NCBI GenBank assembly: GCA_964529985.1
Contig: CAZGYL010000002.1
Span: 1-32,355 of the forward strand
DNA from: an uncultured Planctomycetia bacterium
Lineage (GTDB): Bacteria > Planctomycetota > UBA8108 > UBA8890 > UBA8898
DNA: 32,355 bases
Direction of reading: 5' to 3'
Shown: positions 4,751 through 26,798 of the stretch, in pieces
Position numbering within the stretch: the first letter of the stretch is position 1
Layout of the letters: each line of letters opens with the position of its first letter
Notes under the pieces: generated by a model
The model's database searches: none
Seen by the model: the letters and a program-made list of their open reading frames with translations, nothing else
What the model was told of the DNA's origin: nothing
Translations under genes and position numbers: made by a program

Positions 4751-4836
4751 TGGCACTACCTCCGCAGGTACGTTGGGTTCGAAGGGAAACAGGGTCCGTT
4801 TTCGATAAGATAGCTAAGTTTCCGGCGAGCATCAAC

Positions 4837-5070: not shown

Positions 5071-5112
5071 GCTTGACAATGCTTGTCTGCACGGAAATGG
5101 AGGCCGGTTCTC

Positions 5113-6141: not shown

Positions 6142-6218
6142 ACAGGGCTGTTTTCCTGCGTGCTCTCTTGGGGCATGATGGCGCAAACAGACGGAAAAAC
6201 AGCTTTGGAGGTCAAGCG

Positions 6219-11648: not shown

Positions 11649-14600
11649 TCAGAGCGAAGCCTCGCAGCCCAGGTCTCCGTCGGGAGCTTGCGGATCCACT
11701 GTGGCGTCGACTCCCGGGTCGGGGTACGGTGGCAGCGGCGGCGGTCCGTGTCTGAACCTGAAATCGACCAACCAGATCGCATCGCTTAGATCGACCCTGC
11801 CGTCATCGTTTGCGTCCGCTGCGTCCATGCAAGGCGGCGGCGGTCCGTCCCTGAAGAGGTAGCTGAAGACCCAGATTGCATCAGCCACATCAACACGGCC
11901 ATCATGGTTCGCATCGCCGCGCACAAGCTTAGGCGGGATGATTTCAGCTTCACAGGGCTCTGAGGCTGCTGTGCTGGGACCAATCGAGGCTATCGCCCTG
12001 TAGGTGTAAGTCCCGGGCGGTACCCTCTCGTTGACGTAGGAAGTCGCGTTACCGGGTAGAGGCCCGAAGTAATCGGTACCCTCCGGACCCTCTCTTTCGA
12101 TAACTATCGAGTCATAAGTCCCAGCAAGGCTCCAGGTTAAGGTCACCCGTCCTTCCAAACCAATGACAACAGCCGCGCAAATGAAATCGGCGGGCGGGGA
12201 GACAACCTCCACCTCGCAGTATGCAGGCGGCGTCACTCCACTGGTTTCACTTTCTGCATACAACAGGTACTGGTGGGTTCCAGCAGGAACCCCCTCGTCC
12301 TTCCACTCGGTCACAGTGCCTTCAAGCACCGCAACCTCAACGGCATCACGATACACATGGATCGTCTGATACTGCCAGCTGTTTGTCCAGGCCAGCGTAA
12401 CGGTGTCGTCATGAGCTTCGCAGTTGACAAGCACAGGCGGCGGAAGAACTTCGACTTGACAAACAGCCGCTGCACTGACGCTGCCAAGGGCGAAGCCGAT
12501 CACCTCATATGTCCACGTGGCCGGTGTGGGGAGCTGATCCACGTAGCTTGTGGTGGATCCGTCAAGGCCCTGCGCAATAACTTCACCGTTGCGGCGCACC
12601 GTGATCGAGTCGTAAACCATGGGGTTCGTCCAGCTCAAGCGCACCTCATTTGCAATCGGTTCTATCGCGCAGGCAAGTTCACCCGGAGCCGGTATGACGT
12701 TGACTGTGCAAGCGGCGGGGCCGCTCAGGCTTTCACCGATTCGGCCGCGCACTTCGTAGTTGTACGCACCCGGCTCCAGATCACTGTCGGTGTACTCGCT
12801 TACATCGCCGGCAAGACCCTCTTCAATCACCGTACCGTTTCTTGTGATCTGAATGCTGTCGTAGGCGTCGGTATCAGTCCACCTCAGGTGAACGGTCGTG
12901 CCTTCAGCGCTGCAGACAAGGTCGACCGGCGGCCGAGGAATCGTAAGAGTGCACTGAACCGCAGGCGCGCTGCTGGGGTCTACGATTCCTATAACTTCGT
13001 ATGTGTAGGTGGTTCCGGGTTCAACGTCCGTGTCGCGGTGCGTGGTGGTTGTTCCCGGAAGCTGAACAAGTTCTTCACCGTTTCTCAGGATCACGATCGA
13101 ATCGTAAACCTCAGGCAGGCTCCAGCTCAAGGTAACGCCTGTTTCATCAGCAAGACAATGCAATTCGGCAAGCGGCTGTGGAGCATGCACGCTGCAGGAA
13201 GCTGGATCGGAAAGACTTGAACCCGCTTTGGCCACGATTTCGTACTCGTAGTCGCCCGGTCCGAGCGGTCCGTCCTCATAGCCTGTCTGATCGCCGGGCA
13301 AAGCGGCGACAAGCTCGCCGTTGCGATACAGCTTGAGTTCCTGGTAACCGGCCGGCACGGTCCAAGTGATACTTACGGTTCCAGCTCGGCTTGAGCAAGA
13401 CAGATCGCCCGGGGGCGCAATCGTGGAGATCGTACAGGAAGCAAGCTCGCTTATTGCAGCTCCTTGAACGGTCCGCACTCCGTACTCATACGTACCGGGA
13501 ACGCTGACCGTCTCCTCGAAAGTCGTAGCATCACCGGGAAGCTGGGCTACAACCTGGCCGTCCCGCAACACTTCGACTCCGGCTGCCGGCCCGGGCAAAG
13601 TCCAACTCAAGCGCACGGTCGCACCTACGGTCTCACACGCCAGATTTTCCGGAGGCAACGGAAGCGAAATCGAACAGGCGGCAGGTGCACTCAAGTTGCC
13701 GTCGATCACTCCGACCACTTCGTACTCGTAGGTTTGACCTGCTTGTGCGGTTTGGTCCAGATACTGCGTTGCATCACCGGGAAGCGAGGCCAGCACCTCT
13801 CCGTTTCGAAGAACCTTCACTTCGCTGTAAGCGTCGCCGTTTTGCCATGTGAGGGTGACTTGAGGCCCTTCAGCGCTGCGGGCAAGATCAAAAGGAGCGC
13901 CCGGCGCCACAACCTCACAGTCCACCGCCGCGCTTATCGATGTCCCGAAGCTCGCCACAATCTCGTAACGGTGGGTTCCCACTTCAACACCTGAGTCCAT
14001 GTACTGCGTTGTGTCACCCGCCAACTGGGCGACCAACCCGCCGTCGCGGTAAAGAGCGATACTTTCGTAAGTGGCGGTATTGGTCCATTGCAACGTCACG
14101 GTATCGGCCACAGCGCTGCATGTTAAGTCGGCAGGCGGAGTCAAAACAACGATCTCGCATGCTGCAACCGCGCTTGCAGAGCCTTCCACCTCTCCGAACA
14201 GTTCGTAGGTATGAGTTCCGGGCGGCACATCTTGATCTTGATAAGCGGTGGTTCCACCCGGAAGTCGCGCCAACTCCTGGCCGTCTCTGAGAAGAACGAT
14301 TGTCTCGTACAACTCCCCGTTCTCCCAAACGAGGCTCACCACGGTCGCTTCGGCTGAGCAGGCCAGATTGGAAGGTGGCACCAAAATCTTCAGTATGCAG
14401 ACAACAGGGTCGGAGAGGTTCCCGTCCTTTTCTCCCGCAACCTCAATGCGATAGCTGCCCGCTGCAAGCCCTTCAACAATGTACTCGGTTGTATCTCCGC
14501 TGACTACGATGTCGCCCAGTCCGGGAACGAGAATATGAACCGCATCGTACTGAACGGGCGAAGACCAGCTGATTGTTGCATTTTCTCCCGAAGCCGTGCA

Positions 14601-16907
14601 CGAAAGGTTCTCAGGAGGAGCAACAACAAGTACGGTGCAGCTTGTTGTATCCGAGAAGTTGTCGCCTATGATCCCGCGTACTTCATATGTATGCTCTCCG
14701 GGCGGGACTCCCGTCTCGGTGAATGTGCCCAAACCTCCCGGGAAAACCGCAAGCAGATTTCCGTCCCTTGTGATTTCCACTTTCTCGTAAGGATCCGGTT
14801 CGTTCCACCGCAGTGTTACAGTACTGCCGGTAACCTCGCAAACCAGATCGCTCGGAGGCTGGACCACAACCACCGCACAAGAAGCAGAGACACTTTCATA
14901 CGGATCAATTCCCGTCCAAACTTCGTATGTGTGAGGGCCGAAAGGCACGCCCTGATCTTCGTAGCTTGTAGCTGTGCCCGGAAGCTCGGCCATGACATCA
15001 CCGTCACGCGCAACCACAACGCCTCCGACGCTTCCCGTCAGGCTCCATGTGAGAGTTACGGTTTGACCCCGGGCCGCGCAGCTCAGAGAAGCGGGCGGGG
15101 GAACTTGAATCCTTATCTCGCAGGAGACGCTTCCGGTGGTAACTCCGTCTGATTTGCCTCGAACTTCATAGGTGTGCGGCCCGACAGGGACCTGAGTGTC
15201 GGTGTAGGTGGTTGCGTCTCCGGAAAGTTGCGCAAGCAGTTCGCCGTCACGCAGGATCTCAACAGAATCATAGTTGTAAGGATTGCTCCAAGTAAGTTTC
15301 ACAGTATCTTCCTCAGGAGCGCAGACCAGGTCGGTCGGCCGAGGGATCGACTCCCCGGTAAATACGCTTACCTGGCCGGCGCAAGGTCCGCCCAGAAGAC
15401 TTTGGAGCGGAGCACCCGCGGCAACGTCGCTTCCTTCGTTTCCACTGTGGTCGCCCAGGCCTGCAACGGATGAAGCGAAACGGGCTCTTGACCTTTTAGC
15501 TTGAATGCGGATTCCGTAGTCAGGCCATTGGTGGAGGCTGAGCATCACGGGCCAGTCGGGGCGACCGAAAAGGATATAGAGCGCTCCGGCGTTGGGGAAC
15601 GAGGCCGGGGTAGCCCTCGGAGCTCCTACAGCAAAGTCATCCTTGCCGTCGGCATTGAAGTCACCGATTGCAGCAACAGCCGCTCCCGTGCGCCACCAAT
15701 CGTTCTCACCTTCTATTACGACACCGAAGGAGGCCATATCGAAGAAGGTTATGGTTTCAGGATAACTGTCGGCTCCGAAGACCAGATATACGCGCCCGCG
15801 CTCGCGGCCGTGCGAATATTGTATAAAGCTCCTGGAGTAAGGCGCTCCTGCAATAAGGTCAGGCCGTCCGTCGGCGTTTACATCACCGCCTGCAACCGAC
15901 CAACCCAGCCGCTCTTCAATCGAACCTGCAGCAAGACGAAAACCCGCACCGTTCAATGGAGCCCGGGCATCGATTACAGGAGGAAGGTTCGGCGAGCCGA
16001 AAAGAACAAGCACCCGGCCGCCGTTGACAAAACCACCCGGATCCTCAAAAGGAGCTCCTATCGCAATATCCGGAGAACCATCACCGTTAAGGTCCCCTAC
16101 TCCTGCAACCGACCATCCCAGCCGGCCGTAAGCTTCGCCTCCTTTAATGGTGACATCAGCGTCTTTTTCCAAGTCAAGCACTGCGGGTCTGCCGGGCCGC
16201 CCGTAGATTATGTAAGCTTTTCCGGCTTGGACTTTGTCCCCTCTTTGAGCTCTGGGAGCTCCTACGAGTAAATCTGCAAGCCCGTCGCCGTTTATGTCGC
16301 CTGCTCCTGCAACAGCAAATCCCGCGTTTTCGGCAGGTCCCGCTCCTACTACTCTGGTTGCAGAGAGAGAGTCTATGTCAATGGACTGCGGCCACGAATC
16401 CGTGCCGTAGATTATTTGCACCGCGCCGGTGAAAGCGACTCCGTCGTCGTTGTCTCCGTCGATGTGGCCGGGAGCACCCGGTAGGCCGACGGCTATATCC
16501 GGGGAGCCGTCACCGTCGAAGTCCCCGATACCGGCCACCGAAGTGCCGAGGAAAGCTCCGGGCACGCTGGTTGATATCTCGGTGTAGGGACCGAAGCCCG
16601 GAGGAACCTGCGTTGTTCCCGTGATTCCCGGTTTGCCGAAAAGAACGAAAGCACGACCTGCCTTGGGAGCGGTTGCACAAGAGTCGGGAGCACCGACAAG
16701 AAGGTCTCCCAACCCGTCGCCGTTCAGGTCACCGGCAGAGCCCAAAGAAGTGCCGAACCTCGCCTCACCCTCGGTTCCTTCATAGATAATGTCTCCCGGT
16801 ACGGAGCCCGGTCCGGTCGCACAGTCGTCATTAGCCCGCGCAGGACTGTGGCACACAAACAGAAGAACCAAAACCAATAAGACTAGGACTGACCATCGAG
16901 TGACCAT
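11649..16907 (-). CDS. Giant secreted protein: signal peptide, 7-bladed FG-GAP (integrin-alpha-like) propeller, 14 Ig/FN3-like repeats and a dockerin-like C-terminal module
   Basis: Seven FG-GAP calcium-loop repeats are present (GDLNGDGLGDLLVGAP, GDFDGDGSPDIAVGLP, GDINGDGLADLLVGAP, GDLNGDGSPDIAIGAP, GDVNADGRPDLIAGAP, GDFNADGKDDFAVGAP, GDHSGNEGSDVAAGAP). Fourteen tandem repeats follow, and the tail reads GDANHDGRVDVAD...DANDDGRVDLSD. Start placed at ATG 16907 (MVTRWSVLVLLVLVLLFV...) with GGGAGGAGG (16910-16918) just upstream; GTG 16937 is the maximal ORF start. Confidence 0.9.
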   Translation of the reverse strand: MVTRWSVLVLLVLVLLFVCHSPARANDDCATGPGSVPGDIIYEGTEGEARFGTSLGSAGDLNGDGLGDLLVGAPDSCATAPKAGRAFVLFGKPGITGTTQVPPGFGPYTEISTSVPGAFLGTSVAGIGDFDGDGSPDIAVGLPGAPGHIDGDNDDGVAFTGAVQIIYGTDSWPQSIDIDSLSATRVVGAGPAENAGFAVAGAGDINGDGLADLLVGAPRAQRGDKVQAGKAYIIYGRPGRPAVLDLEKDADVTIKGGEAYGRLGWSVAGVGDLNGDGSPDIAIGAPFEDPGGFVNGGRVLVLFGSPNLPPVIDARAPLNGAGFRLAAGSIEERLGWSVAGGDVNADGRPDLIAGAPYSRSFIQYSHGRERGRVYLVFGADSYPETITFFDMASFGVVIEGENDWWRTGAAVAAIGDFNADGKDDFAVGAPRATPASFPNAGALYILFGRPDWPVMLSLHQWPDYGIRIQAKRSRARFASSVAGLGDHSGNEGSDVAAGAPLQSLLGGPCAGQVSVFTGESIPRPTDLVCAPEEDTVKLTWSNPYNYDSVEILRDGELLAQLSGDATTYTDTQVPVGPHTYEVRGKSDGVTTGSVSCEIRIQVPPPASLSCAARGQTVTLTWSLTGSVGGVVVARDGDVMAELPGTATSYEDQGVPFGPHTYEVWTGIDPYESVSASCAVVVVQPPSDLVCEVTGSTVTLRWNEPDPYEKVEITRDGNLLAVFPGGLGTFTETGVPPGEHTYEVRGIIGDNFSDTTSCTVLVVAPPENLSCTASGENATISWSSPVQYDAVHILVPGLGDIVVSGDTTEYIVEGLAAGSYRIEVAGEKDGNLSDPVVCILKILVPPSNLACSAEATVVSLVWENGELYETIVLLRDGQELARLPGGTTAYQDQDVPPGTHTYELFGEVEGSASAVAACEIVVLTPPADLTCSAVADTVTLQWTNTATYESIALYRDGGLVAQLAGDTTQYMDSGVEVGTHRYEIVASFGTSISAAVDCEVVAPGAPFDLARSAEGPQVTLTWQNGDAYSEVKVLRNGEVLASLPGDATQYLDQTAQAGQTYEYEVVGVIDGNLSAPAACSISLPLPPENLACETVGATVRLSWTLPGPAAGVEVLRDGQVVAQLPGDATTFEETVSVPGTYEYGVRTVQGAAISELASCTISTIAPPGDLSCSSRAGTVSITWTVPAGYQELKLYRNGELVAALPGDQTGYEDGPLGPGDYEYEIVAKAGSSLSDPASCSVHAPQPLAELHCLADETGVTLSWSLPEVYDSIVILRNGEELVQLPGTTTTHRDTDVEPGTTYTYEVIGIVDPSSAPAVQCTLTIPRPPVDLVCSAEGTTVHLRWTDTDAYDSIQITRNGTVIEEGLAGDVSEYTDSDLEPGAYNYEVRGRIGESLSGPAACTVNVIPAPGELACAIEPIANEVRLSWTNPMVYDSITVRRNGEVIAQGLDGSTTSYVDQLPTPATWTYEVIGFALGSVSAAAVCQVEVLPPPVLVNCEAHDDTVTLAWTNSWQYQTIHVYRDAVEVAVLEGTVTEWKDEGVPAGTHQYLLYAESETSGVTPPAYCEVEVVSPPADFICAAVVIGLEGRVTLTWSLAGTYDSIVIEREGPEGTDYFGPLPGNATSYVNERVPPGTYTYRAIASIGPSTAASEPCEAEIIPPKLVRGDANHDGRVDVADAIWVFSYLFRDGPPPPCMDAADANDDGRVDLSDAIWLVDFRFRHGPPPLPPYPDPGVDATVDPQAPDGDLGCEASL
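11652..11927 (-). other. Dockerin-like duplicated calcium-loop/helix module (C-terminus of the FG-GAP protein)
   Basis: RGDANHDGRVDVADAIWVFSYLFRDGPPPPCMDAADANDDGRVDLSDAIWLVDFRFRHGPPPLPPYPDPGVD...GDLGCEASL. It contains two D-x-N-x-D-G-x-x-D-x-x-D loops, each followed by an amphipathic helix. Confidence 0.7.
11928..15335 (-). repeat. 14 tandem coding repeats of about 243 nt (81 aa), Ig/FN3-like, each bracketed by two conserved cysteines
   Basis: The repeat consensus read from the translation is (D/N)L.C...G.TV.L.W.N...Y(D/E).I.(I/V).R(D/N)G..(L/V)A.LPG..T.Y.D..V.PG.H.YEV.........S....C.V.V..PP. There are 14 units from DLVCAPEEDTVKLTW to DFICAAVVIGLEGRVTLTW. The units have diverged at the DNA level (no near-identical copies). 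Confidence 0.8.
15336..16800 (-). other. FG-GAP / VCBS-type seven-bladed beta-propeller region of the 11649-16907 protein
   Basis: Seven evenly spaced copies of x-G-x-S-V-A-G-x-G-D-x-N-G-D-G-x-x-D-(L/I)-x-V-G-A-P lie between the signal peptide and the first Ig-like repeat. Boundaries are approximate. Confidence 0.75.
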
Positions 16908-17069: not shown

Positions 17070-18122
17070 TTAGAGGCCGCCGTAAAGCTCGCAGGATAGG
17101 TCATCCGGAGTCGGATCCAGGCCCAGATCCGGGAAAGGAGGGGGCAGGGGGGGCGCTCCGCCGAACAGGAAGCCCAGAATGCGGACCGGGTCTGCTATGT
17201 CAATTACACCGTCGTCGTTTGCATCGGCCGTATCCAGGCACCCTACGGCCTTGTTGGAGAAAAGGTAGCCCAGCACCAGAATTGGATCCGCGATATCGAG
17301 GGAACCGTCGCCGTTTGCATCGCCCCGCATAAACAACGTCCCGCAAGCAAACGAGCCTTCGGCGCAGTCCGTTCCGTTGCAAACCTGTACGGCAACGTTT
17401 TTCGGCTCCCCGCAATTGTAACTCTCAATGATGATTGTGTTCTGGTCCACAAGGGTGAATTCCTGTGCAACCCCCTCAACAGATACCTGTGTCTGAGGGA
17501 TGAACCCCGAACCTTGAATGGTTACCGTTGCTACGTTGCCTTGGTACTCTGCGCTCACTTCCGAAATAGAGATCTCAGGCCAGGTTACGTTCAACGTGCC
17601 GTCACGCAGCGCGGGGAATATGTCGTCCAGCGCCTCGTTGGTCGCATATGCGTTTCGAAGGAGCGCTCCCGTACCGCCTTCGCCCGTGCGGCGTCCTTCC
17701 TCGGGGAGGTGCAGCGCGTAGACACCGGGCGGAATGCCGGGATTCAGCTTACAGGTGAAGCCTCCCACCGGAATATCAGTGCCGCCGGGCAACGTAGTAC
17801 CGTCATACGGCGGCAGGAAGTCCATGATCCAACCGAAGGCCGCCCAAGTATCTGTCACAATCGAGTCGGACCACTCAGGGGCAGGATCGCTCGGCAGAAT
17901 AAGATCTTGGACTTGGAACATACCCGGGTCATATGCAACGACCGCGGTTAAGCCGGCGATATTATCTTCAGCGGTAAGGAAAAAGGAAACGGAGAAGGTG
18001 CTTTCAAGAGCCGATACGTTCACGTCACCGACCCTAAGAACAGGCTCCCCCGCAAACAAGCCGCACTTGTATACACAAAGCACAAGCACCGAAAACAACA
18101 AAGATTGTCGGAGTAATCGCAT
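17070..18122 (-). CDS. Secreted 350-aa protein: cohesin-like domain, IPT/TIG domain and dockerin-like module
   Basis: Signal-like N-terminus MRLLRQSLLFSVLVLCVYKCGLFAG. Residues about 27-175 (LRVGDVNVSALESTFSVSFFLTAEDNIAGLTAVVAYDPGMFQVQDL ... GGFTCKLNPGIPPGVYALHL ... DGTLNV) follow the cohesin strand pattern. An IPT-like segment is present (ISEVSAEYQGNVATVTIQGSGFIPQTQVSVEGVAQEFTLVDQNTIIIES). The tail reads RGDANGDGSLDIADPILVLGYLF...DANDDGVIDIADPVRILGFLF. AGAGG lies 6 nt upstream of ATG 18122. Confidence refers to the CDS; the cohesin assignment alone is about 0.55. Confidence 0.85.
   Translation of the reverse strand: MRLLRQSLLFSVLVLCVYKCGLFAGEPVLRVGDVNVSALESTFSVSFFLTAEDNIAGLTAVVAYDPGMFQVQDLILPSDPAPEWSDSIVTDTWAAFGWIMDFLPPYDGTTLPGGTDIPVGGFTCKLNPGIPPGVYALHLPEEGRRTGEGGTGALLRNAYATNEALDDIFPALRDGTLNVTWPEISISEVSAEYQGNVATVTIQGSGFIPQTQVSVEGVAQEFTLVDQNTIIIESYNCGEPKNVAVQVCNGTDCAEGSFACGTLFMRGDANGDGSLDIADPILVLGYLFSNKAVGCLDTADANDDGVIDIADPVRILGFLFGGAPPLPPPFPDLGLDPTPDDLSCELYGGL
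17073..17330 (-). other. Dockerin-like module (C-terminus of the cohesin-like protein)
   Basis: MRGDANGDGSLDIADPILVLGYLFSNKAVGCLDTADANDDGVIDIADPVRILGFLFGGAPPLPPPFPDLGLDPTPDDLSCELYGGL. Confidence 0.7.
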
Positions 18123-18548
18123 AGCGCACCTCTGCTCGATCTTCTCATTACTATCCTAGAGCTTCTGCCAACCAAAAGCAACCGGCCGGGTCGGAGCATG
18201 GCATGTTTGCTGTGACAGCTCTTTAACAGAATGCGCCTGAGACCGGAACGACCTCAGGCGCCGCCCGAGCCGCCTTGGCGCAGCGGCACCGGTTCCCATA
18301 CAATAGAAAGGTCAGCAGGGCGTCGGCCTATAACGGTTGAAAAGTGCGATGGAACGGTTTCGGTTCACTATGGGAGAGGTCCCGTCCTTCATGTCGTTCC
18401 CGTTCGGGCTTCTCGGTTTTCACAATAGGTTTAACAGCGCCTTACTGGTCCGAGTAGGTGTAGTGCGAATCGGTGCAGTTTGAACGCAAGCTGTACAGCT
18501 CGGAACAGGATCCCGCTTTTTCAGTTTGAAACGGAGGTAGCTTAGTTA

Positions 18549-21500
18549 ATGGGCGGTGATAATAACATGGGCATCTTGAGAAAAGTTACAGCGCTTCCGA
18601 CGTTGTACGCATTCGTATTGCTGCAAAGCGCGTTGGCAGGGCCTTACGACGTACGCATCAACGAACTTCATTACCACCCGGCGGGTGAAGACCAGGCGCT
18701 TGAATTCGTTGAGCTTCACAACACCGGGGAGACGGACGTTGACCTTTCAGGCTGGTCGTTCACCTCGGGAATCACTTACACGTTTCCCTCTGGTGTTGTG
18801 ATACCGGCTTTCGGCTACTTGGTCGTCGCCAAGGATCCCGCCGCGCTTCAGGAAGTTTTCGGCCCCCTGCCTGTTGTAGGCCCTTACGAAGGATTTCTTT
18901 CGGACGGTGGCGAATGGATCAGGCTTGAAGATTCACGGGGAAGGGTGATTGAAGAGTTCAGCTGGAGTGATTCGGCGGCTTGGCCCCAGAGGGCGGACGG
19001 CCGGGGTGCTTCGCTTGAGCTTATCCGCCCGCGCGCGGAGCCTGATTGGGGTGACAGCTGGGCCTCAAGTGTGGTCGTAAACGGCACCCCAGGTTCGGTA
19101 AACAGCCATTCCGAAGGGTACGAAGAGCAGACGATCCTCACCGAGGGCGCGCAAGGGCGCTACTTCAAGGGCGTAGCCGATCCTCCCGCCGATTGGACGG
19201 ACCCTGATTTTGATGACTCTTCGTGGCCTTCGGGGCCCAGCGGTTTCGGTTACGGGGACGGGGACGATGCCACCGTGCTTACGAATATGCAGGGCAATTA
19301 CAGCACCGTTTACGTGCGCATGTATTTCAGCCTGACCGATACCGATTTCCGGAAACTTTCCCTTTCGGTTGTTTTTGACGACGGATTTGTCGCTTACCTG
19401 AACGGCCAGGAAGTGGCGAGGTTTCTGGCTCCCGGTTCCCCCGGAGAGTTTGTGCCTCATACAGCTTTAGCCGCTGATCTCCACGAATACACCGACGGAC
19501 CTGCCGCAGTGGACCTGACGGCGTTTATTCCGCTGTTGCGTGAAGGTGACAACGTTCTTGCTCTTGTGGGTCTTAATGAATCGCTTGATTCCTCAGATCT
19601 TTCGCTCGCGCCCACTCTTTCGGGGGTGAAGCGGGTTTTGGGCATCGATGAGGTAATGGGCCGGCGTGTTGTGGAATCGGTTATTCGGCAGGGAGAACGG
19701 TGGCGTTATTTCAAGGGCACGGAAGAGCCGCCCGAGGGCTGGACGGCCGTTGATTTCGACGACAGTGCGTGGCCTGAGGGGGTGGCGGGCTTCGGCTACG
19801 GCGACAACGACGACGCCACCGTGCTTGAGGATATGCAGCGGATTCCCGGGACCCAGCCCGGATACAGCACGCTTTACCTGCGCCGGACCTTTTCCCTGCA
19901 GGGAGACCCCCAGTCGGTGCACCGCCTTTACCTGCGGATCGATTACGATGACGGTTTCGTCGCCTATCTCAACGGTGTAGAGGTGGCCCGCAGCCCGAAT
20001 GTCACCGGATCGCCGCCTGCCCACGATGCGCTTGCAACCGCGCAACACGAAGCAGGCGCTGTGGAAACCTATGATATTACGGCGTTTCGCGGGCTGCTCA
20101 GTGACGGAGTGAACTGCCTGGCCGTTCAAGGGCTCAACACTTCACTTGAAAGCTCAGACTTTTCTCTCCACCCGGAGCTTGTGATCGACCACACGGTAAG
20201 AGCGCGGCCTGAGGCATTGAGCTGTCCGGTTGAGATCAACGAGATCGCGCCTTCTGCCGTGGGAGGGTGGATCGAGCTTTTCAATCCATCGGACGCTCCG
20301 TGGGATTTGAGCTCTTACCGTTTGGGACTCTCACCTCGGCAGACGGCGCTTTACGGTTTTCCCCAAGGCACCATCATTCAGCCGCACTCTTTCTTGGTTG
20401 TGAACGAGCAGGATCTCGGCGCTCAGATACCGACCGCCGGTGTGGTTCTTCTTACTGATCCTGCAGGGCTTCTTCTTGTCGACAGCCGCGCTTACGATCT
20501 CAAAGGCGCGGCGGCCGGCTCCTGCGCGCGGTATCCTGACGGCAGGGGGCCCATGAAGGTGGTTCCCGGCGCCACGCCCGGTGAACCGAACACACCTTCT
20601 CTTTCACACGACGTGGTGATCAATGAGATTATGTATCACCCCGCAGCAGCGCCCGGGGAAGTGGAGCCCGAATGGATAGAGCTCTGGAACACTGGCTCTG
20701 AAACTTTGGACTTAACGGGTTGGGCTTTTACCAGGGGAATAGACTTCCGCTTTCCCGACGGAACCACTTTGCCTGCAGGAGGTTTTCTTGTTGTCGCCAA
20801 GGATCCCGACCGGCTTACAGCCGAGTATGGGACGACCAATGTGGTGGGGCCGTTTGAGAGCGGACTTAAGAACGACGAAGAGTTGATCCTCCTGCGGGAT
20901 AACTATGGCAATCAGGTGGACAGAGTTCATTACGCCGACGACGGCAGGTGGCCCACAGAGGCAGACGGCGGGGGGCCGAGCATTGAGCTTATCAATCCGG
21001 CGTATGACAACAGAAGCGGCCAAGCGTGGGCTGCAAGCGCCGGAGCCGGAACCCCGGGCGCTATGAACAGCGCATATCAGGCGGATGTTCCACCCCTTGT
21101 AAAAAGAGTCCGCCACAGCCCGGCTGTACCTTCTTCCGCCTCGCCTGTTACGATCTCCTGCAGTGTGGAATCGCCGACTTCGCCCATCGCCCGTGTGACT
21201 TTGTACTGGAAGATAGACGGCCAGGATGACTTCACCGCTACTGAGCTTTCCGATGATGGAGCCTCGGGTGACGGAGAGGCAGGCGATGGGGTTTGGGGAG
21301 TGATTCTCAATCCGTTTCCCGCCGGCACGGTTGTCTGTTTCGCCATTGTAGCTGAAAGTGAGACGGGCAAAAGCCGCACAGTGCCGGCCTCCTGGGCTCA
21401 AGACCAAAGCGTGACAATGCTTTTCCAAGTTCAGGACGATTTGCCTTTCTGGTCTGATCCCACCTACCGGATCGTGATGACGGCTGATCGGATAGATACA

Positions 21501-24500
21501 TTGCGCTCGCGTTCCATTTGGAGCGATGAGCTGCTGGATGCGACCTTTATCGCCGGTGAGGAGATCTTCTACAACGTGGGGATCCGCTACAGGGGCCGCA
21601 GCGCGCGGTACCACACGCCCAAGAGCTACCGCGTGCAGCTTACCGACGACGAAAAATTCCGGGATATGAAGCGGATCAACATAAACGGATACCGCCCGGA
21701 GACACAGCACCTGGGTATGGGCCTGTTCCGGGTAAGCCGGGTTCCCGCACCTATAAGCCGGCCGGTGAGGTTTGTTTTCGACAACAAGGTTGTCAACCGC
21801 TATGTGCACATGGAAGCGGTCCATGAAGGGTTCTTGCGGAGGCGGTTCCCGGGCGATGACGAAGGAAACCTCTACCGAGGGGAGCAGCGGGCCAACCTGG
21901 ATTGGCGCGGAAGCGATAAAGAAGCGTACCGCCCGTATTACCTTAAGCGCACAAACGTCGAGGAGGACGATTTCTCAGACATTATGGAGCTTTGCTATGT
22001 CTTCGACCGGGATACGACCCCTGATGACGAAGTCTTTTACCAGCGGCTCCAGGAGCTTGTCGACATTGAGGAGTGGGCCAGGTTCTTTGCGGTTCATACG
22101 GTTATAAGCACCCAAGAGGGCGGGATTTACAGGGACAAAGGCGATGATTATTACCTTTACCGCCGGCCGAGCGACGGCAAATGGGTGCTGATTCCTTGGG
22201 ACGTGGACGACAGTTTTCTGAATCCGACCGAACGACTTTTCCGGCCGACCGTTCCTTCTATCGTGCGCTTTCTGCATCACCCCGCCGTAACGCCTTACTA
22301 CTACGCTGCGTTGAAGGAACTTACAGGAGGCGCATTCTCCGAAGAGACGATCGGAAGAAAAATCGATGAGCTCATAGGGATAATCTCAGAGAACCGCGCC
22401 GAAGAGCTGCATGCCTTCGCGCAGCAAAGACGTACTTTCATTGACGAACGAGTTCCGACGGAATTCCATGCTTCGCTCGGCCCCGATACGCTCGTAAGTG
22501 CGGAGAGCGAAACTTGGCGCTATTTCCGGGGAACGACGGAGCCTTCCGGCGGGACCACCGCTTGGACCGCCGTGGATTTCGATGACAGCTCGTGGCCCAC
22601 CGGACCCGGGGGGTTCGGATACGGCGACGGTGATGACGCGACAGTGCTTGACGATATGCGGGGCAATTACACCACCGTTTATCTGCGGCATACTTTTACG
22701 GTTGACGATCCTTCTGAGATCCAGAGCCTGGCTTTGGCCGTCCTAGTAGATGATGGTTTTGTAGCTTACCTGAACGGCACTGAAGTGGCTCGATTCCATG
22801 CGCCCGGCGTACCGGGTGATCCGGTACCTGCAGGAAGCACGGCGACAGCGGATTGGGAGGCGCGAACGCCGCTTACCTTCCGCATTGAGAATGCAGGCGG
22901 GATCCTTCGCCGCGGCACAAACGTGCTTGCGCTTCAAGGGTTGAATTCGTCCCTCAACAGCAGCGACTTTTCCCTGGCCGCCACCTTGGGCCGAGGAGTT
23001 CTTGTTGCTGAAGGCTGCCCGGGTGACTTGTATGTGGCGGGAACGGATCTCCTTATCTCAGGCGTGACTTCAGTAGCCGACACCTTTCACGTGGCGGTAA
23101 ACGGAGAGGAGATTCCTTTCGATCCCATGACCGGCGAATTTGAGGCGTTGGTTTCGATCGCCGCCGGGGTGGAGCACATAATCGTCGAGGCGCTTCGAGA
23201 GGATCTGAGCATCTACGACCGCGCTGAGTTTACAGTAACGGTGGTTCAATCAATAGGCGGAGTGCTGCCCGGCGACAGGACGCTCGAAGCTTCCGGCGGC
23301 CCTTACCTTGTGGGGGGATCTCTCGTCGTACCGGCAGGCGTGACCCTCACCGTCGAGCCCGGCACGGAGCTTATCTTCCGAGAAGGGGTGACCGTACGGG
23401 TTGAGGGTGGAATTTCAGCTGAGGGAACGCAGGACCTGCCGATCGTTCTAAGCGGCGTAAGTTGTGTTGAGAACTGGGGCGCTTTTGATCTGCGGGGAAC
23501 GACCCAGGACAATAGATTCGCCTGGTGTGTCTTTAAGGGAGCGGGTGCTTTGGGAAGCAGTCCTGCTGCCCTTACCGTGCGCTCCGGAAATGTCGCTCTT
23601 TCGCACTGCACCTTTGAAGACATCTCGGGCGACGCCCTCTTCGGAGCTTCTTCGACGATAAGCGTGGCCGATACAACGATCCGCCGGGCTGACCGAGGCG
23701 TTGTACTTGAGTGGTGTCCTTCTGCTGCCATCGAGCGCACGTTGATCGAGGACCTCCAAGGCACCGGAACGTGTATATCGGTAAACGGCTCAATGGCTTC
23801 CCCGGTAGCGATCGTTGATTGCACCGTGGGGGACACGCCCGGTGTGGGCGTAACCGTTGAGAATGGAGCGGTCCGCGTTTCAGGGTGCACGATAAGCGGT
23901 TGCGGCAAGGCCGGACTCAGCCTCTACGGATCCCAAAGGAGTATCGTTGAGAAAAGTCTGATCCATCACAATCATATCGGGATCGCTCTGCACGACAGCC
24001 ACAGAGCGCTCCTTGATCACAATACGATAGTCGACAACACAAAGGCCGGAATCGTTTGTTCCGAGGCGACCGAAGGTCGTGGAAGCGGACATGCGGAGGT
24101 ACGAAGCTGTATTGTCTACTTCAACGGAGAAGCTTTGCAGATCGATGATCTCGGCACGGCGGCCTTTGCGTTCAGCGATATCGAGATGACTCCTTTGCCG
24201 CCCGGCGAAGGGAATTTCAACTCCGATCCGCTTTTTACCGACCATGGAGCTGCGCAGTACAGCTTGAGTGCGGACTCCCCCTGCATAGGTGCCGGGGAGA
24301 ACGGTACAGATGTCGGTGCAATACCTTACACGGACGTGCCGGGGGCGCCTCGATCGCTGCGCGTTGTGGGAGTTACCTCAAGCAGTATCGCGCTTGCTTG
24401 GGACGATGCTTCGGTGAACGAAGATGGATTTGAGCTTTACCGCAAGGGACCGGGAGAGGAGGATTTTCAACTTATTGCCGCATTGGCCGCCGACACAACA

Positions 24501-26798
24501 AGTTACGTTGATGTAGGCTTGACGCTTTTTGAGACCTACACCTACCGCATCAGGGCCTTCAACGATCAAGGGTACTCCGATTGGTCCAACGAGATAAGCG
24601 TGCAGGTTCAACCCACGCCTTCTGCTCCCACGGATTTGGTGGTGCTTGAAGTTACTGCAAATGCAATAACCTTGGGGTGGAAGGACAACTCGGACGATGA
24701 GAGCGGTTTTGAGCTCTACAGGACCGAACCGAACGGTGAGACCTTTTCCCTTCTTGTTCGGCTTGGACCCGATGTGACCACCTACCGGGATGATTCGCCT
24801 CCCCTTGAACCCGGAGCTTTGTACCGTTACCGCGTGCGGGCGTACAATGCAAGCGGAGCTTCCGGTTGGTCGAATACGGTTGAGCAGCGCACGGGTATCC
24901 CTCCTTCGGCACCTGAAAATCTTTCCGTCTTAAGCTACGGGGTCGACGGCATAACGATCGGGTGGACCGATACCTCGGACAACGAGCAAGGTTTTGAGAT
25001 CCAGATAAAGGAGCCCCAAAGCGGCGAGTGGCGGGTTCGCGCCACCGTTGCTGCAGACACTACGAGGTTTGAAGACACTGGATTGCAGCAGGATACCGTT
25101 TACAGCTACAGGGTCCGTTCCTTTAATGAAGCAGGAGCTTCGGCGTGGGCCGGCCCTGTCAGCCGGAAGACGGGCAAAGTGCCGGAACCGCCCCAGGACT
25201 TCTCGGTTGTTGATGTCGGAGCTGATTGGATTCTCCTTGCCTGGGGAGAGGCGGAGGGAACAGGCTATGAACTTGAACGCGCCGTCGAGGAAGGCCCGTT
25301 CGAACCCCTCTCTTTGTTTACGCCGGGAACACTGTCCTACGCGGATACCGGGCTTGCTCCCGGAACGACCTACCGCTACCGCCTGCGCACCATAAACGCC
25401 TTTGCAACTTCGGCCTGGTCGTCTGTTGCAGTCGGAACTACAGGGCACCTGCCCCAAGCCCCCGCCGATCTGGCGGCGGCTGAGGTTGCAGCCTGGCCTC
25501 CGCCTGATACGCAGCCCAGGCCGCTTCCCAGTGAAGTGACATACACCGTGACTCTTACCTGGGACGACCGCGCGGACAACGAGGTGGGCTTTGAGCTTCA
25601 GCGCCGGATCGGGGAGGAACCGTGGAGCAGTTTGATCGAGCTTCCCGCCGACTGGGAAAGTTACACCGACCGGGATATTCCGCCCGGAGCGTCCCTATCT
25701 TACCGGATCCGCGCTTTGAACCGATTCGGGCATTCCGAGTGGAGTAACGAAGTATCGCTGCGCATTGCAACGGCGCCCTCTGCGCCTGCAAATGTGCGTA
25801 TCACGGAGGTCGGGGTGAGCTCGCTAACGGTGCAATGGGAAGATCGTTCGGAAAACGAGCTCTGGTTTGAGGTCGAAAGGCGGCCTGAAGGCGGGCGGTG
25901 GCAGGTAGCCGGTGTTGTCAGTGCAGACCAGACGACGTTCCGCGATCAAGATCTTCAGCCTGACACAAGCTACACGTATAGAGTTTGGGCACGCAGCCCT
26001 TTCCAGTACTCTTTGCCCTCCGAAGAGGTAACCGGCCGCACGGGGCGGGCTCCGAATGCACCTTCGTCTTTGCACGAGAAAAGCTGGAGCACAGAGGCCA
26101 TAACATTAGGGTGGGAGTATGAGCCTGCTCCGGGGACCGAATTGGTCGTAAAGCGGCGCTCAGGGCGGCAAGGCCCGTGGATCGAAGTTGCACGCTTTCC
26201 TGGAGAGGCAACGAGCTGGACGGATCAGAACGTCGAAAGCGGAGAAGTTTATGAGTACCGGATCGAGGCCCGGAACGAGTTCGGTTCCTCAGAACCCAGC
26301 TCGGTGCTGCTGACCTGTGCAGGCGTTAAGATCCTCCAGATCGCGCCTGCTGAAGGGCATATCGAAGGAGGTGATCCTGTTGAAATAAGGGGGATCCATT
26401 TTGAAGAGGGCCTTGAGGTGACTTTCGGCGGGCGGGTGCTCGGAGGGCTGAGTGTCGTTGATTCCGGGCGCTTAACCGGTGTAGTCCCGCCCGGCAAGAG
26501 GGCCGGAGCCGTCGATGTGGCTCTTACCTGGAATTCTCTAAGCGATGTAGTTCCGGCTGGATACCGTTACAGCTTGGGACTGCTTCATGGAGATGCCAAC
26601 GGAAACAACTTCGTAAGCATTGCGGACGCGATTTACATTCTTTCCTATCTCTTCCGTCACGGCGAGGCGCCTTATTGCAAAGCGCTTGCGGACGTCAACA
26701 ACGACGGATCGTTGGATATAAGCGATGCGACGTTCCTGCTTAATTATCTTTTTGGAGGCGGTCCCGCACCTTATCCGGAACGGGTGGACTGCAGGTGA
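18549..26798 (+). CDS. Giant secreted protein (2749 aa): LTD, 2 unassigned jelly-roll-like modules, 2 LTD, Ig-like domain, CotH kinase-like domain, third module, Ig-like domain, right-handed beta-helix, 7 FN3, IPT/TIG, dockerin-like module
   Basis: Signal-like N-terminus (ILRKVTALPTLYAFVLLQSALAG). Lamin-tail-domain motifs: VRINELHYHP...EFVELHN...VDLSGWSF, VEINEIAPS..GGWIELFNPS, VVINEIMYHP...EWIELWNTG. CotH blocks: YRIVMTADRIDTL, FYNVGIRYRGRSARYHTPKSYRVQL, GDDYYLYRRPSDGKWVLIPWDVDDSF. Parallel beta-helix repeats: VTLTVEPGTELIF ... NTIVDNTKAGIV. Seven FN3 domains, an IPT domain (VKILQIAPAEGHIEGGDPVEIRGIHFEEGLEVTFGG) and the tail GDANGNNFVSIAD...DVNNDGSLDISD follow. GGAGG (18533-18537) precedes ATG 18549. 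Confidence 0.9.
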   Translation: MGGDNNMGILRKVTALPTLYAFVLLQSALAGPYDVRINELHYHPAGEDQALEFVELHNTGETDVDLSGWSFTSGITYTFPSGVVIPAFGYLVVAKDPAALQEVFGPLPVVGPYEGFLSDGGEWIRLEDSRGRVIEEFSWSDSAAWPQRADGRGASLELIRPRAEPDWGDSWASSVVVNGTPGSVNSHSEGYEEQTILTEGAQGRYFKGVADPPADWTDPDFDDSSWPSGPSGFGYGDGDDATVLTNMQGNYSTVYVRMYFSLTDTDFRKLSLSVVFDDGFVAYLNGQEVARFLAPGSPGEFVPHTALAADLHEYTDGPAAVDLTAFIPLLREGDNVLALVGLNESLDSSDLSLAPTLSGVKRVLGIDEVMGRRVVESVIRQGERWRYFKGTEEPPEGWTAVDFDDSAWPEGVAGFGYGDNDDATVLEDMQRIPGTQPGYSTLYLRRTFSLQGDPQSVHRLYLRIDYDDGFVAYLNGVEVARSPNVTGSPPAHDALATAQHEAGAVETYDITAFRGLLSDGVNCLAVQGLNTSLESSDFSLHPELVIDHTVRARPEALSCPVEINEIAPSAVGGWIELFNPSDAPWDLSSYRLGLSPRQTALYGFPQGTIIQPHSFLVVNEQDLGAQIPTAGVVLLTDPAGLLLVDSRAYDLKGAAAGSCARYPDGRGPMKVVPGATPGEPNTPSLSHDVVINEIMYHPAAAPGEVEPEWIELWNTGSETLDLTGWAFTRGIDFRFPDGTTLPAGGFLVVAKDPDRLTAEYGTTNVVGPFESGLKNDEELILLRDNYGNQVDRVHYADDGRWPTEADGGGPSIELINPAYDNRSGQAWAASAGAGTPGAMNSAYQADVPPLVKRVRHSPAVPSSASPVTISCSVESPTSPIARVTLYWKIDGQDDFTATELSDDGASGDGEAGDGVWGVILNPFPAGTVVCFAIVAESETGKSRTVPASWAQDQSVTMLFQVQDDLPFWSDPTYRIVMTADRIDTLRSRSIWSDELLDATFIAGEEIFYNVGIRYRGRSARYHTPKSYRVQLTDDEKFRDMKRININGYRPETQHLGMGLFRVSRVPAPISRPVRFVFDNKVVNRYVHMEAVHEGFLRRRFPGDDEGNLYRGEQRANLDWRGSDKEAYRPYYLKRTNVEEDDFSDIMELCYVFDRDTTPDDEVFYQRLQELVDIEEWARFFAVHTVISTQEGGIYRDKGDDYYLYRRPSDGKWVLIPWDVDDSFLNPTERLFRPTVPSIVRFLHHPAVTPYYYAALKELTGGAFSEETIGRKIDELIGIISENRAEELHAFAQQRRTFIDERVPTEFHASLGPDTLVSAESETWRYFRGTTEPSGGTTAWTAVDFDDSSWPTGPGGFGYGDGDDATVLDDMRGNYTTVYLRHTFTVDDPSEIQSLALAVLVDDGFVAYLNGTEVARFHAPGVPGDPVPAGSTATADWEARTPLTFRIENAGGILRRGTNVLALQGLNSSLNSSDFSLAATLGRGVLVAEGCPGDLYVAGTDLLISGVTSVADTFHVAVNGEEIPFDPMTGEFEALVSIAAGVEHIIVEALREDLSIYDRAEFTVTVVQSIGGVLPGDRTLEASGGPYLVGGSLVVPAGVTLTVEPGTELIFREGVTVRVEGGISAEGTQDLPIVLSGVSCVENWGAFDLRGTTQDNRFAWCVFKGAGALGSSPAALTVRSGNVALSHCTFEDISGDALFGASSTISVADTTIRRADRGVVLEWCPSAAIERTLIEDLQGTGTCISVNGSMASPVAIVDCTVGDTPGVGVTVENGAVRVSGCTISGCGKAGLSLYGSQRSIVEKSLIHHNHIGIALHDSHRALLDHNTIVDNTKAGIVCSEATEGRGSGHAEVRSCIVYFNGEALQIDDLGTAAFAFSDIEMTPLPPGEGNFNSDPLFTDHGAAQYSLSADSPCIGAGENGTDVGAIPYTDVPGAPRSLRVVGVTSSSIALAWDDASVNEDGFELYRKGPGEEDFQLIAALAADTTSYVDVGLTLFETYTYRIRAFNDQGYSDWSNEISVQVQPTPSAPTDLVVLEVTANAITLGWKDNSDDESGFELYRTEPNGETFSLLVRLGPDVTTYRDDSPPLEPGALYRYRVRAYNASGASGWSNTVEQRTGIPPSAPENLSVLSYGVDGITIGWTDTSDNEQGFEIQIKEPQSGEWRVRATVAADTTRFEDTGLQQDTVYSYRVRSFNEAGASAWAGPVSRKTGKVPEPPQDFSVVDVGADWILLAWGEAEGTGYELERAVEEGPFEPLSLFTPGTLSYADTGLAPGTTYRYRLRTINAFATSAWSSVAVGTTGHLPQAPADLAAAEVAAWPPPDTQPRPLPSEVTYTVTLTWDDRADNEVGFELQRRIGEEPWSSLIELPADWESYTDRDIPPGASLSYRIRALNRFGHSEWSNEVSLRIATAPSAPANVRITEVGVSSLTVQWEDRSENELWFEVERRPEGGRWQVAGVVSADQTTFRDQDLQPDTSYTYRVWARSPFQYSLPSEEVTGRTGRAPNAPSSLHEKSWSTEAITLGWEYEPAPGTELVVKRRSGRQGPWIEVARFPGEATSWTDQNVESGEVYEYRIEARNEFGSSEPSSVLLTCAGVKILQIAPAEGHIEGGDPVEIRGIHFEEGLEVTFGGRVLGGLSVVDSGRLTGVVPPGKRAGAVDVALTWNSLSDVVPAGYRYSLGLLHGDANGNNFVSIADAIYILSYLFRHGEAPYCKALADVNNDGSLDISDATFLLNYLFGGGPAPYPERVDCR
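21441..22460 (+). other. CotH (atypical protein-kinase-like) domain, copy 1
   Basis: Family-typical blocks IRYRGRSARYHTPKSYRVQL, NLYRGE, IEEWARFFAVHTVI, DDYYLYRRPSDGKWVLIPWDVDDSF. Boundaries are approximate. Confidence 0.75.
24339..26324 (+). repeat. Seven tandem FN3 domains (about 95 aa each) in the 18549-26798 protein
   Basis: Each unit reads P.AP..L.V..V....I.L.W.D.S.NE.GFEL.R.......(W/F).......AD.T.Y.D..L...T.Y.YR(V/I)RA.N..G.S.WSN.V, for example PGAPRSLRVVGVTSSSIALAWDDASVNEDGFELYRKG...TYTYRIRAFNDQGYSDWSNEISV. The fifth unit carries a Pro-rich insertion. Confidence 0.8.
26580..26795 (+). other. Dockerin-like module (C-terminus of giant protein 1)
   Basis: LLHGDANGNNFVSIADAIYILSYLFRHGEAPYCKALADVNNDGSLDISDATFLLNYLFGGGPAPYPERVDCR. 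Confidence 0.7.

Follow-up and report, generated by a model that had tools for sequence, protein, structure and literature searches.

What a small protein that joins a cohesin-like to a dockerin-like module might connect is the question raised by a gene on the minus strand (positions 17070-18122) of a 32,355-nucleotide (nt) stretch of DNA from an uncultured planctomycetal bacterium (contig CAZGYL010000002.1, positions 1 to 32,355), which is referred to below, at its full length, as the window. The original prediction, made from the letters of this DNA, divided the 350-amino acid (aa) product into a cohesin-like, an IPT/TIG and a dockerin-like module and offered two functions, that of a self-polymerising connector and that of an adaptor between giant neighbouring proteins and an anchor encoded elsewhere. 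On the basis of structure models, profile searches and the gene neighbourhoods of relatives we propose, with a probability of roughly 0.5, that the protein is a secreted, non-enzymatic, monovalent adaptor scaffoldin of the type-switching kind which operates in a non-cellulosomal system. What is new is an observation: a divergent cohesin subfamily is tied by synteny to a dedicated short dockerin subtype carried by ~300-kDa giant proteins with lamin-tail domains (LTD) and CotH modules.

The product is read from an ATG at the 18122 end of an open reading frame (ORF), as established from the ORF list and its translation, and the JGI gene call on the 42.6-kb source contig Ga0366836_1000831 (sample 3300033156) is the identical gene, 17070-18122. 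Full-length relatives with 99%, 59% and 51% identity occur in other metagenomes; since the aligned proteins agree in module order and share numerous invariant positions, the gene is real, conserved and under selection. The named relatives and the nearest genome loci of the cohesin protein all belong to uncultured Planctomycetota. The module order is signal peptide, cohesin, IPT/TIG spacer and dockerin, one each, and a scan with hidden Markov models (HMMs) finds a single cohesin match and a single dockerin match within the protein. The features of the gene, with the evidence in brackets (AF2, AlphaFold2), are the following.

17070..18122, minus strand: gene of the 350-aa cohesin–TIG–dockerin protein, stop codon at 17070-17072 (ORF list, JGI call, orthologues)
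18048..18122, minus strand: Sec-type signal peptide, aa 1-25, MRLLRQ and a hydrophobic core followed by ..LFAG/EP, with a presumed cleavage site (hydrophobicity scan)
17577..18047, minus strand: divergent type-I-like cohesin, aa 26-182 (AF2, Foldseek, profile against the PDB, alignment to Pfam-positive relatives)
17337..17576, minus strand: IPT/TIG Ig-like spacer, aa 183-262, with the conserved cysteines 237, 248, 253 and 260 (Pfam, NCBIfam, AF2)
17073..17336, minus strand: dockerin, aa 263-350, with a Pro-rich extension after the helices (PDB match, AF2, Foldseek, invariant columns)
17286-17321, minus strand: Ca loop 1 of the dockerin, aa 268-279 (translation)
17190-17225, minus strand: Ca loop 2 of the dockerin, aa 300-311 (translation)

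The cohesin could not be recognised on the basis of the Pfam model, since the Cohesin family (PF00963) has no match in the query protein at E<=0.1. An exhaustive phmmer search with the N-terminal domain against 1.84 billion representatives yielded 23 relatives at E<=1e-3, and the domain aligns in register with the Pfam-positive cohesins of distant relatives (P0087, 33.6 bits; P0124, 25.4 bits; P0127, 24.4 bits; gathering cut-off of the family, 24.1 bits). When a profile of 24 N-domain sequences was compared with the PDB sequences, the nine best matches were cohesins, headed by 3ul4_A (E 4e-4). In the AF2 model of the full-length protein, which was built on a 7-sequence alignment, the predicted local distance difference test score (pLDDT) of the cohesin region exceeds 90 over most of its length (aa 30-140 and again 171-190) and amounts to 66-83 in two loop blocks. 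The modelled N-terminal domain forms the nine-stranded beta jelly-roll that characterises cohesins, and Foldseek superposes it on the type I cohesins 6kge_A, 3ul4_A, 1aoh_A, 4uyp (A/C) and 1ohz_A; template modelling (TM) scores against solved cohesins, normalised to the target, are 0.74-0.80 at a root-mean-square deviation (rmsd) of ~3 Å. The single-domain top matches of the full-length model are all cohesins, and no carbohydrate-binding module is found among its top 50 Foldseek matches in the PDB. The original prediction had named exactly this combination of structure prediction and Foldseek search as the way in which it could be overturned; the cohesin fold was found and the refutation failed. 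Directly after strand 6 the family has a specific and strongly conserved loop, D-F-L-P-P-(F/Y)-D-G-x-T-L-P-x-G. Profile scans of genome contigs and of metagenome contigs with the N-domain alignments gave no confirmed matches, and an exact 36-mer taken from the end of the window had no match in the metagenome contigs.

The nearest non-orthologous relatives (P0124-P0142) contain this cohesin as 2-4 tandem copies in proteins of ~950-1,330 aa, which are built of Big_5, an FG-GAP propeller, the cohesins and usually a dockerin. This architecture resembles that of polyvalent scaffoldins and makes these proteins a candidate receptor class for dockerin tails.

The C-terminal module is the dockerin. Its loops, D268-A-N-G-D-G-S-L-D-I-A-D279 and D300-A-N-D-D-G-V-I-D-I-A-D311, are each followed by a helix (aa 278-289 and 310-319) and thus provide the tandem of 12-residue Ca loop and helix that is typical of type I dockerins; the loop columns are invariant or nearly so across 30 aligned tails. 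The Pfam Dockerin family (PF00404) gives 16.3 bits on the query, which is under the cut-off of 22.9, and passes in P0003 (23.0 bits), P0122 (24.5 bits) and both giant neighbours (25.4 and 28.0 bits). The best phmmer match of the protein in the PDB is the dockerin 2y3n_B (E 1.5e-4). A dockerin-only AF2 model based on the 30 aligned tails reached a pLDDT of 91.8 and a predicted TM score of 0.83, and 21 of its 22 Foldseek matches in the PDB are dockerins (target-normalised TM score 0.70-0.81, rmsd 1.4-2.2 Å), so that the tail has a dockerin fold. Cys295 and Cys344 of the tail are invariant and probably form a disulfide which clasps it. Of the best 120 matches to the full-length protein, 20 carry both a Pfam Cohesin and a Pfam Dockerin.

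The middle module is matched by Pfam TIG (PF01833) at aa ~185-260 with 16.8 bits (cut-off 20.9) and by the NCBIfam CoaZ repeat with 30.4 bits (cut-off 30), and TIG passes in the orthologues P0003 (23.0 bits), P0120 (104 bits) and P0121 (57.6 bits). AF2 models it as a beta-sandwich with a pLDDT of 80-93. Its length is the main difference among the orthologous cohesin proteins, one Ig-like module in the 350-aa class versus ~400 aa in the 655-669-aa class, and such variation is expected of a spacer arm. The four conserved cysteines of this module, together with the invariant pair of the tail, fit an exported, oxidised protein. The three-module reading was thus borne out by AF2, Foldseek, PDB matches and the Pfam hits of the orthologues.

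Residues 6-25 constitute the sole hydrophobic stretch in a 19-mer hydrophobicity scan of the 350-aa protein, with no second hydrophobic segment beyond the signal peptide, which AF2 renders as a helix at aa 2-22 with low pLDDT. A lipoprotein was considered and rejected: the two cysteines of the signal peptide lie outside a lipobox context and are not kept in orthologues, so that there is no conserved lipobox. Pfam and NCBIfam scans of the protein found neither SLH nor LPXTG nor another anchor family. The earlier statement that no membrane anchor, SLH domain, sortase motif or lipobox-like context is obvious therefore stands. A monovalent adaptor scaffoldin is defined by one cohesin and one dockerin, ScaC being the type example (PMC11557425); the 350-aa protein has one of each, is secreted and lacks an anchor.

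The window was scanned in six frames with HMMs that represent the cohesin subfamily and the dockerin tail. The window contains one cohesin, that of the 350-aa protein, and three dockerin tails, those of the 350-aa protein itself, of a 1752-aa FG-GAP/fn3 giant and of a 2749-aa LTD giant; a fourth tail lies on the contig. The corresponding features are listed here.

18123..18548, no strand: divergent intergenic region between the cohesin gene and the gene of the 2749-aa giant (gene coordinates)
18549..26798, plus strand: 2749-aa giant with three LTDs, CotH, beta-helix, six or more fn3 domains, TIG and short dockerin, the proposed partner (Pfam, dockerin HMM)
26331-26537, plus strand: TIG of the 2749-aa giant (Pfam)
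26586-26795, plus strand: short dockerin tail of the 2749-aa giant, ending in ..ERVDCR (dockerin HMM)
26817..32355, plus strand: 5' part of the gene of a 2721-aa LTD–CotH–beta-helix giant, which runs off the window (Pfam on the part in the window, full protein P0143, locus L010)
11649..16907, minus strand: 1752-aa giant with an FG-GAP propeller, ~15 fn3-like repeats and a long dockerin tail (Pfam, dockerin HMM)
11652-11924, minus strand: long dockerin tail of the 1752-aa FG-GAP giant (dockerin HMM)

The gene of the 2721-aa giant starts 19 nt after that of the 2749-aa giant and ends at ~34982 on the source contig (L010 10001-18166). The full protein is a paralogue of the 2749-aa giant with ~47% identity and the same beginning of three LTDs, CotH and beta-helix; its C-terminus, outside the window, is again a short dockerin (..ENVDCR). 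The dockerin-like tail that had been attributed to the giant neighbours is accordingly present on the 1752-aa and 2749-aa giants and also on the 2721-aa one. Apart from the small protein, the dockerin-bearing proteins of the locus are these LTD–CotH–beta-helix giants and the FG-GAP/fn3 giant. An IPT–dockerin cassette common to the small protein and the 2749-aa giant, as originally suggested, exists in terms of architecture and not in terms of sequence likeness, except for the dockerins (37% identity over 92 aa). As only the dockerin part aligns, the idea of cassette shuffling within the cluster is weak and was rejected in the form in which it had been put.

The related loci proved to be the most informative. 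Wherever enough flank is available, the cohesin–TIG(n)–dockerin gene is located head-to-head with an LTD–CotH–beta-helix giant. This pairing recurs in 5-6 lineages versus none of 80 control loci (1.15 Mb), which were taken from GTDB species representatives around more distant LTD proteins. Locus L001 encodes a cohesin protein of 51% identity and a giant whose N-terminal 988 aa are 65% identical to the 2749-aa giant; in L011/L012 (NCBI metagenome-assembled genome GCA_041308185.1) a 667-aa cohesin protein is found beside two tandem giants, and in L013 and L014 (ADurb.Bin069 lineage) cohesin proteins of 655 and 669 aa, respectively, are encoded head-to-head with a giant. In L003 the first 358 aa of the divergent neighbour match giant residues ~1300-1640 at 52-55%. 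The HMM scans of the related loci found one cohesin per locus, and the cohesin proteins of the different lineages are 38-58% identical to one another.

The giants beside the cohesin gene differ from the small protein in the type of their tails. Their short dockerin has a loop 1 of the form D-A-N-G-N-x, no Pro-rich extension and the terminus ..VDC(R/E), and it ends the giant in all four lineages in which the C-terminus of the giant is visible. In the repeats, (I/V)ADA/(I/L)SDA of the giants stands against IADP/IADP of the small protein, whose own tail is of the 'long' type with IADP in both repeats and the extension PPPFPxxGxDPTxDxLxC. Hundreds of further planctomycetal proteins have this long type, be it C-terminal, N-terminal or in tandem copies. 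Among 120 LTD–CotH relatives 82 have a dockerin tail, which is of the short VDC(R/E) type in seven, all members of the ~2,700-aa class; a cohesin of this family was not found in any of the 120, those of the locus included. In the 80 control loci 49 dockerin tails were detected and not a single cohesin of this family; just one of the tails is short, and it comes from the L014 lineage. In L013 and L014 the short tail is likewise restricted to the ~2,700-aa LTD–CotH member.

Several further properties of the giants were recorded. A ~160-aa module without a Pfam match (W-R-Y-F-(K/R)-G ... GFGYGDGDDATVL ... DDGFVAYLNG-x-EVAR) is present in three copies per LTD–CotH giant; in the window the copies lie at ~19146-20190 and ~22509-22990, corresponding to aa ~200-548 and ~1321-1480 of the 2749-aa protein. 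The shorter relative in L003 starts directly with this W-R-Y-F module. In L013 and L014 the cohesin gene clusters with four or five LTD–CotH genes, whose products differ in their middle modules (PKD, CBM_4_9, L-type lectin, beta-helix).

Consistent with these structural and syntenic data we propose the following scenario for the adaptor. After Sec export, the cohesin would bind, in a Ca-dependent manner, the short tail of the giant that is encoded divergently, or of more than one giant where paralogues exist, as do two at this locus. The TIG module might serve as a rigid spacer, which would have grown to ~400 aa in the 655-669-aa orthologues, and the long dockerin of the adaptor itself might dock the loaded complex on a scaffold or anchor whose cohesin is encoded elsewhere. 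A cohesin for short tails combined with an own dockerin of the long type would represent 'type switching' as in cellulosomal adaptors. If this scenario is true, it provides the first specificity rule for planctomycetal dockerin subtypes, explains how ~300-kDa LTD–CotH surface proteins are held on the cell without the usual Gram-positive anchors and adds an orthogonal cohesin–dockerin pair for protein-assembly engineering.

The following points weigh against this scenario. The pairing between cohesin and short dockerin is deduced from gene neighbourhood and tail subtype only, and neither a receptor cohesin for the protein's own dockerin nor an anchor was found. The cohesin, TIG and dockerin of the query each score under the curated Pfam cut-off. 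The long-tailed LTD–CotH proteins in the L013 and L014 clusters could be served by the cohesin instead. Since these genomes abound in dockerin tails, chance would to some extent be expected to place a dockerin protein next to the cohesin gene; the informative part is the subtype-specific pairing only, which is based on a handful of loci.

The alternative that survives best, although we consider it unlikely, assigns the common long-type dockerins to the cohesin and makes the small protein a general cross-linker, i.e. a promiscuous connector of a surface mesh which is not dedicated to the LTD–CotH giants. The long-tailed FG-GAP giant would be one ligand among many: its JGI start is the ATG at 16907 preceded by GGAGG, 162 nt downstream of the cohesin gene on the same strand, and the scan found no terminator between the two genes. 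A conserved link between them was nevertheless rejected, because the FG-GAP giant is absent beside all orthologues (L001, L011/L012, L013, L014) and unlinked to the cohesin gene in any other lineage. The small cohesin proteins of L006 and L007/L008, which directly follow genes with long-type tails, also favour a cross-linker, as do the several long-tailed LTD–CotH proteins of the L013/L014 clusters; the proteins of L006 and L007, however, are distant relatives (<=29% identity) and not orthologues. A promiscuous cohesin leaves unexplained why the short-tail giant class always accompanies this subfamily.

The distant cohesin proteins that follow long-tailed genes have the architectures cohesin x2–dockerin (P0085) and cohesin–TIG x2–dockerin (P0120). 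These arrangements are found at L006 1374-4759 and at L007 1-3411 / L008 2-2533. Pfam found no families in the neighbours of the L006 and L007 cohesin genes, their long tails being revealed by the dockerin HMM only; in L007/L008 a public gene call on the opposite strand hides the long-tailed ORF.

In a second alternative, which appears quite improbable, the cohesin of one copy of the protein binds the dockerin of the next, thereby forming head-to-tail chains or a gel-like surface matrix that the giants might cap or decorate. Judged from the model, the rigid spacer between the modules would make binding in cis sterically unlikely and leave binding in trans possible. Near symmetry between the dockerin repeats (IADPILVLGYLF / IADPVRILGFLF) would allow a dual binding mode. 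Many planctomycetal proteins with a dockerin–cohesin–dockerin build or with up to five tandem dockerins would fit network formation as well, and self-recognition has a precedent in Amy4 of R. bromii, whose cohesin binds its own dockerin (PMC4611034). The nature of the tail argues otherwise: it is generic and present on hundreds of unrelated proteins, so that a cohesin directed at this tail would have no particular specificity for its own protein, and the conserved partner in the neighbourhood bears the other subtype. Adaptor and primary scaffoldins that have been characterised usually combine on one chain a cohesin and a dockerin of different specificity, which also counts against self-polymerisation. 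Of the two functions originally offered, the adaptor is thus the better supported one, because the small protein ends in the generic long type of tail and the paired giant in the short subtype.

Retrieval via the tail also yielded a large number of small dockerin–cohesin–dockerin proteins of ~380 or ~550 aa (P0004, P0005, P0010, P0011, P0016, P0087 and others) and some planctomycetal proteins that consist of five tandem dockerins only; these architectures suggest a network or a multivalent assembly. A function of the tail as C-terminal sorting signal was rejected, since the same tail is also found at N-termini, in internal positions and in five tandem copies.

A third alternative, to which we give a similarly small chance, dispenses with pairing altogether: the ligand of the cohesin-like jelly-roll would be a glycan or some other component of the surface, and the tail with its Ca loops would be a general module for stability or cell-surface retention, a role which may hold for many non-cellulosomal 'dockerins'. 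The numbers of tails far in excess of cohesins in the control loci (49 versus 0 of this family) would fit such a view, as would the scores of the query under all Pfam cut-offs. Within the literature searched, moreover, the sole planctomycetal model is explicitly hypothetical and a planctomycetal cohesin–dockerin interaction has not been demonstrated (PMC6461901). Yet the fold matches are specific to cohesins and dockerins and, for the full-length model, devoid of carbohydrate-binding modules within the range given above; cohesin and dockerin co-occur in the best matches far more often than expected for unrelated functions; and the variable position of the tail is not that of a sorting signal. 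A failure of the pairing would suggest a role other than cohesin binding for the abundant 'dockerin' tails.

Least probable of all appears a cohesin that recognises its own or any long dockerin as well as the short tails of the giants and forms Ca-dependent head-to-tail chains, a fibre or mesh displaying the ~300-kDa giants, which, if true, would be a structural, non-catalytic use of cohesin and dockerin for building a planctomycetal cell-surface matrix.

The remaining content of the window and of the intergenic regions may be described briefly. No conserved element was detected in the divergent intergenic regions of five aligned loci, and a promoter/terminator scan around the cohesin gene gave nothing above shuffled expectation. 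A GC-rich palindrome with a 13-bp stem is located at 18233-18261 (GCGCCTGAGGTCG..CGGTCTCAGGCGC), ~110 nt upstream of the cohesin gene start; there is no upstream gene to terminate at this site, and the palindrome is not kept in orthologous intergenic regions. The ~15 tandem fn3-like repeats of the FG-GAP giant are ~88 aa long, framed by conserved cysteines and follow the pattern C..V.L.W.....Y..I.I.R.G..IA.L.G..T.Y.D......Y.Y.V........C. Downstream of the P0122 orthologue a truncated gene (L003 2765-2992) begins with a similar-looking repeat; BLAST gave no match between it and the FG-GAP giant. On the plus strand, 6168-10190 is a 1340-aa ORF in which a full penicillin-amidase domain (442 bits) is fused to GH43 (175 bits), an unusual combination without a dockerin tail. 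At 5083-6141, also on the plus strand, an NrpR-family regulator (249 bits) is encoded, a nitrogen repressor best known from methanogens; its gene is divergent from a glutamate-synthase-domain-related gene on the minus strand (3167-4756), and the two may constitute a nitrogen-control pair in a planctomycete. Sulfatase and GFO/IDH/MocA oxidoreductase genes and others of a typical kind are in keeping with a planctomycetal origin of the window, in which Pfam detected no peptidase.

Reportedly, Peer et al. (2009, FEMS Microbiol Lett 291:1) compiled a catalogue of non-cellulosomal cohesin and dockerin modules, planctomycetes included. Cohesin–dockerin modules outside cellulosomes have been catalogued for years, and the novelty originally claimed for the small protein was overstated, since the definition of the adaptor (PMC11557425), the hypothesis of a planctomycetal adaptor (PMC6461901) and self-recognising proteins (PMC4611034) all precede it. 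Among the closest known counterparts are the monovalent adaptors of Ruminococcus flavefaciens (ScaC), Pseudobacteroides cellulosolvens and Paenibacillus guangzhouensis, which share with the 350-aa protein secretion, one cohesin, one dockerin and the lack of an anchor, and which have been proposed to switch the dockerin type and to extend the complex (PMC11557425). Solved cohesins of ScaC (4uyp, 5lxv) are among the best structural matches of the protein. In contrast to the cellulosomal adaptors, however, the host is a planctomycete and not a cellulolytic Firmicute, the cohesin is too divergent for Pfam, an IPT/TIG module is inserted between cohesin and dockerin, and the dockerin has a Pro-rich and presumably Cys-clasped extension. 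Nor does the locus encode a cellulosome: the only glycoside hydrolase in the window, the GH43 fusion, is without a dockerin, and there is no dockerin-bearing glycoside hydrolase at the locus.

A planctomycetal counterpart, the 'planctosome', has been postulated as a hypothetical system of freshwater Planctomycetes (Andrei et al. 2019, ISME J, PMC6461901). In that model an LTD giant with a cohesin is the anchor, the adaptor has the order dockerin–HYR–cohesin and peptidases are the cargo (PMC6461901). Both systems are known as proposals and share a non-cellulosomal character, a giant LTD protein and a small adaptor with signal peptide and both modules. They differ in that the LTD giants described here bear dockerins and no cohesin, the adaptor order is reversed (cohesin–TIG–dockerin) and a peptidase is lacking, so that the locus is not a planctosome as formulated.

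Cohesin and dockerin are also united on one polypeptide in Amy4 of the R. bromii amylosome, for which binding of the cohesin to its own and other dockerins was shown experimentally and which can multimerise; further systems in which multimers presumably arise from such pairs, Archaeoglobus fulgidus among them, are cited in the same report (PMC4611034). Amy4, however, is a 1,356-aa GH13 amylase, whereas the 350-aa protein has no catalytic module. The cohesin–FN3 part of GH84C from Clostridium perfringens (2w1n), the fifth Foldseek match with both domains aligned, provides a non-cellulosomal example of a cohesin followed directly by an Ig-like module; in contrast to the small protein, GH84C is a large glycosidase of a toxin complex and does not combine its cohesin with a dockerin on one small chain.

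For the proposed partners, the precedent is clostridial. Dockerin-borne CotH and LTD–CotH proteins, CseP (Cthe_0044) and Cthe_0239, belong to the C. thermocellum cellulosome (PMC6083626) and, like the giants, have LTD and CotH modules fused to a dockerin, by which the clostridial proteins are loaded on a cohesin scaffold. They are, however, 62-117 kDa in size, whereas the planctomycetal ones reach ~300 kDa with an added beta-helix, fn3 domains, TIG and the short dockerin subtype. Compared with all these systems, the kind of protein found here is already known. For a system hitherto known as a hypothesis the locus offers a testable pair, both members of which can be cloned: a 157-aa cohesin and the 70-aa short dockerins of its divergently encoded giants, for which the long dockerin of the small protein could serve as internal control.

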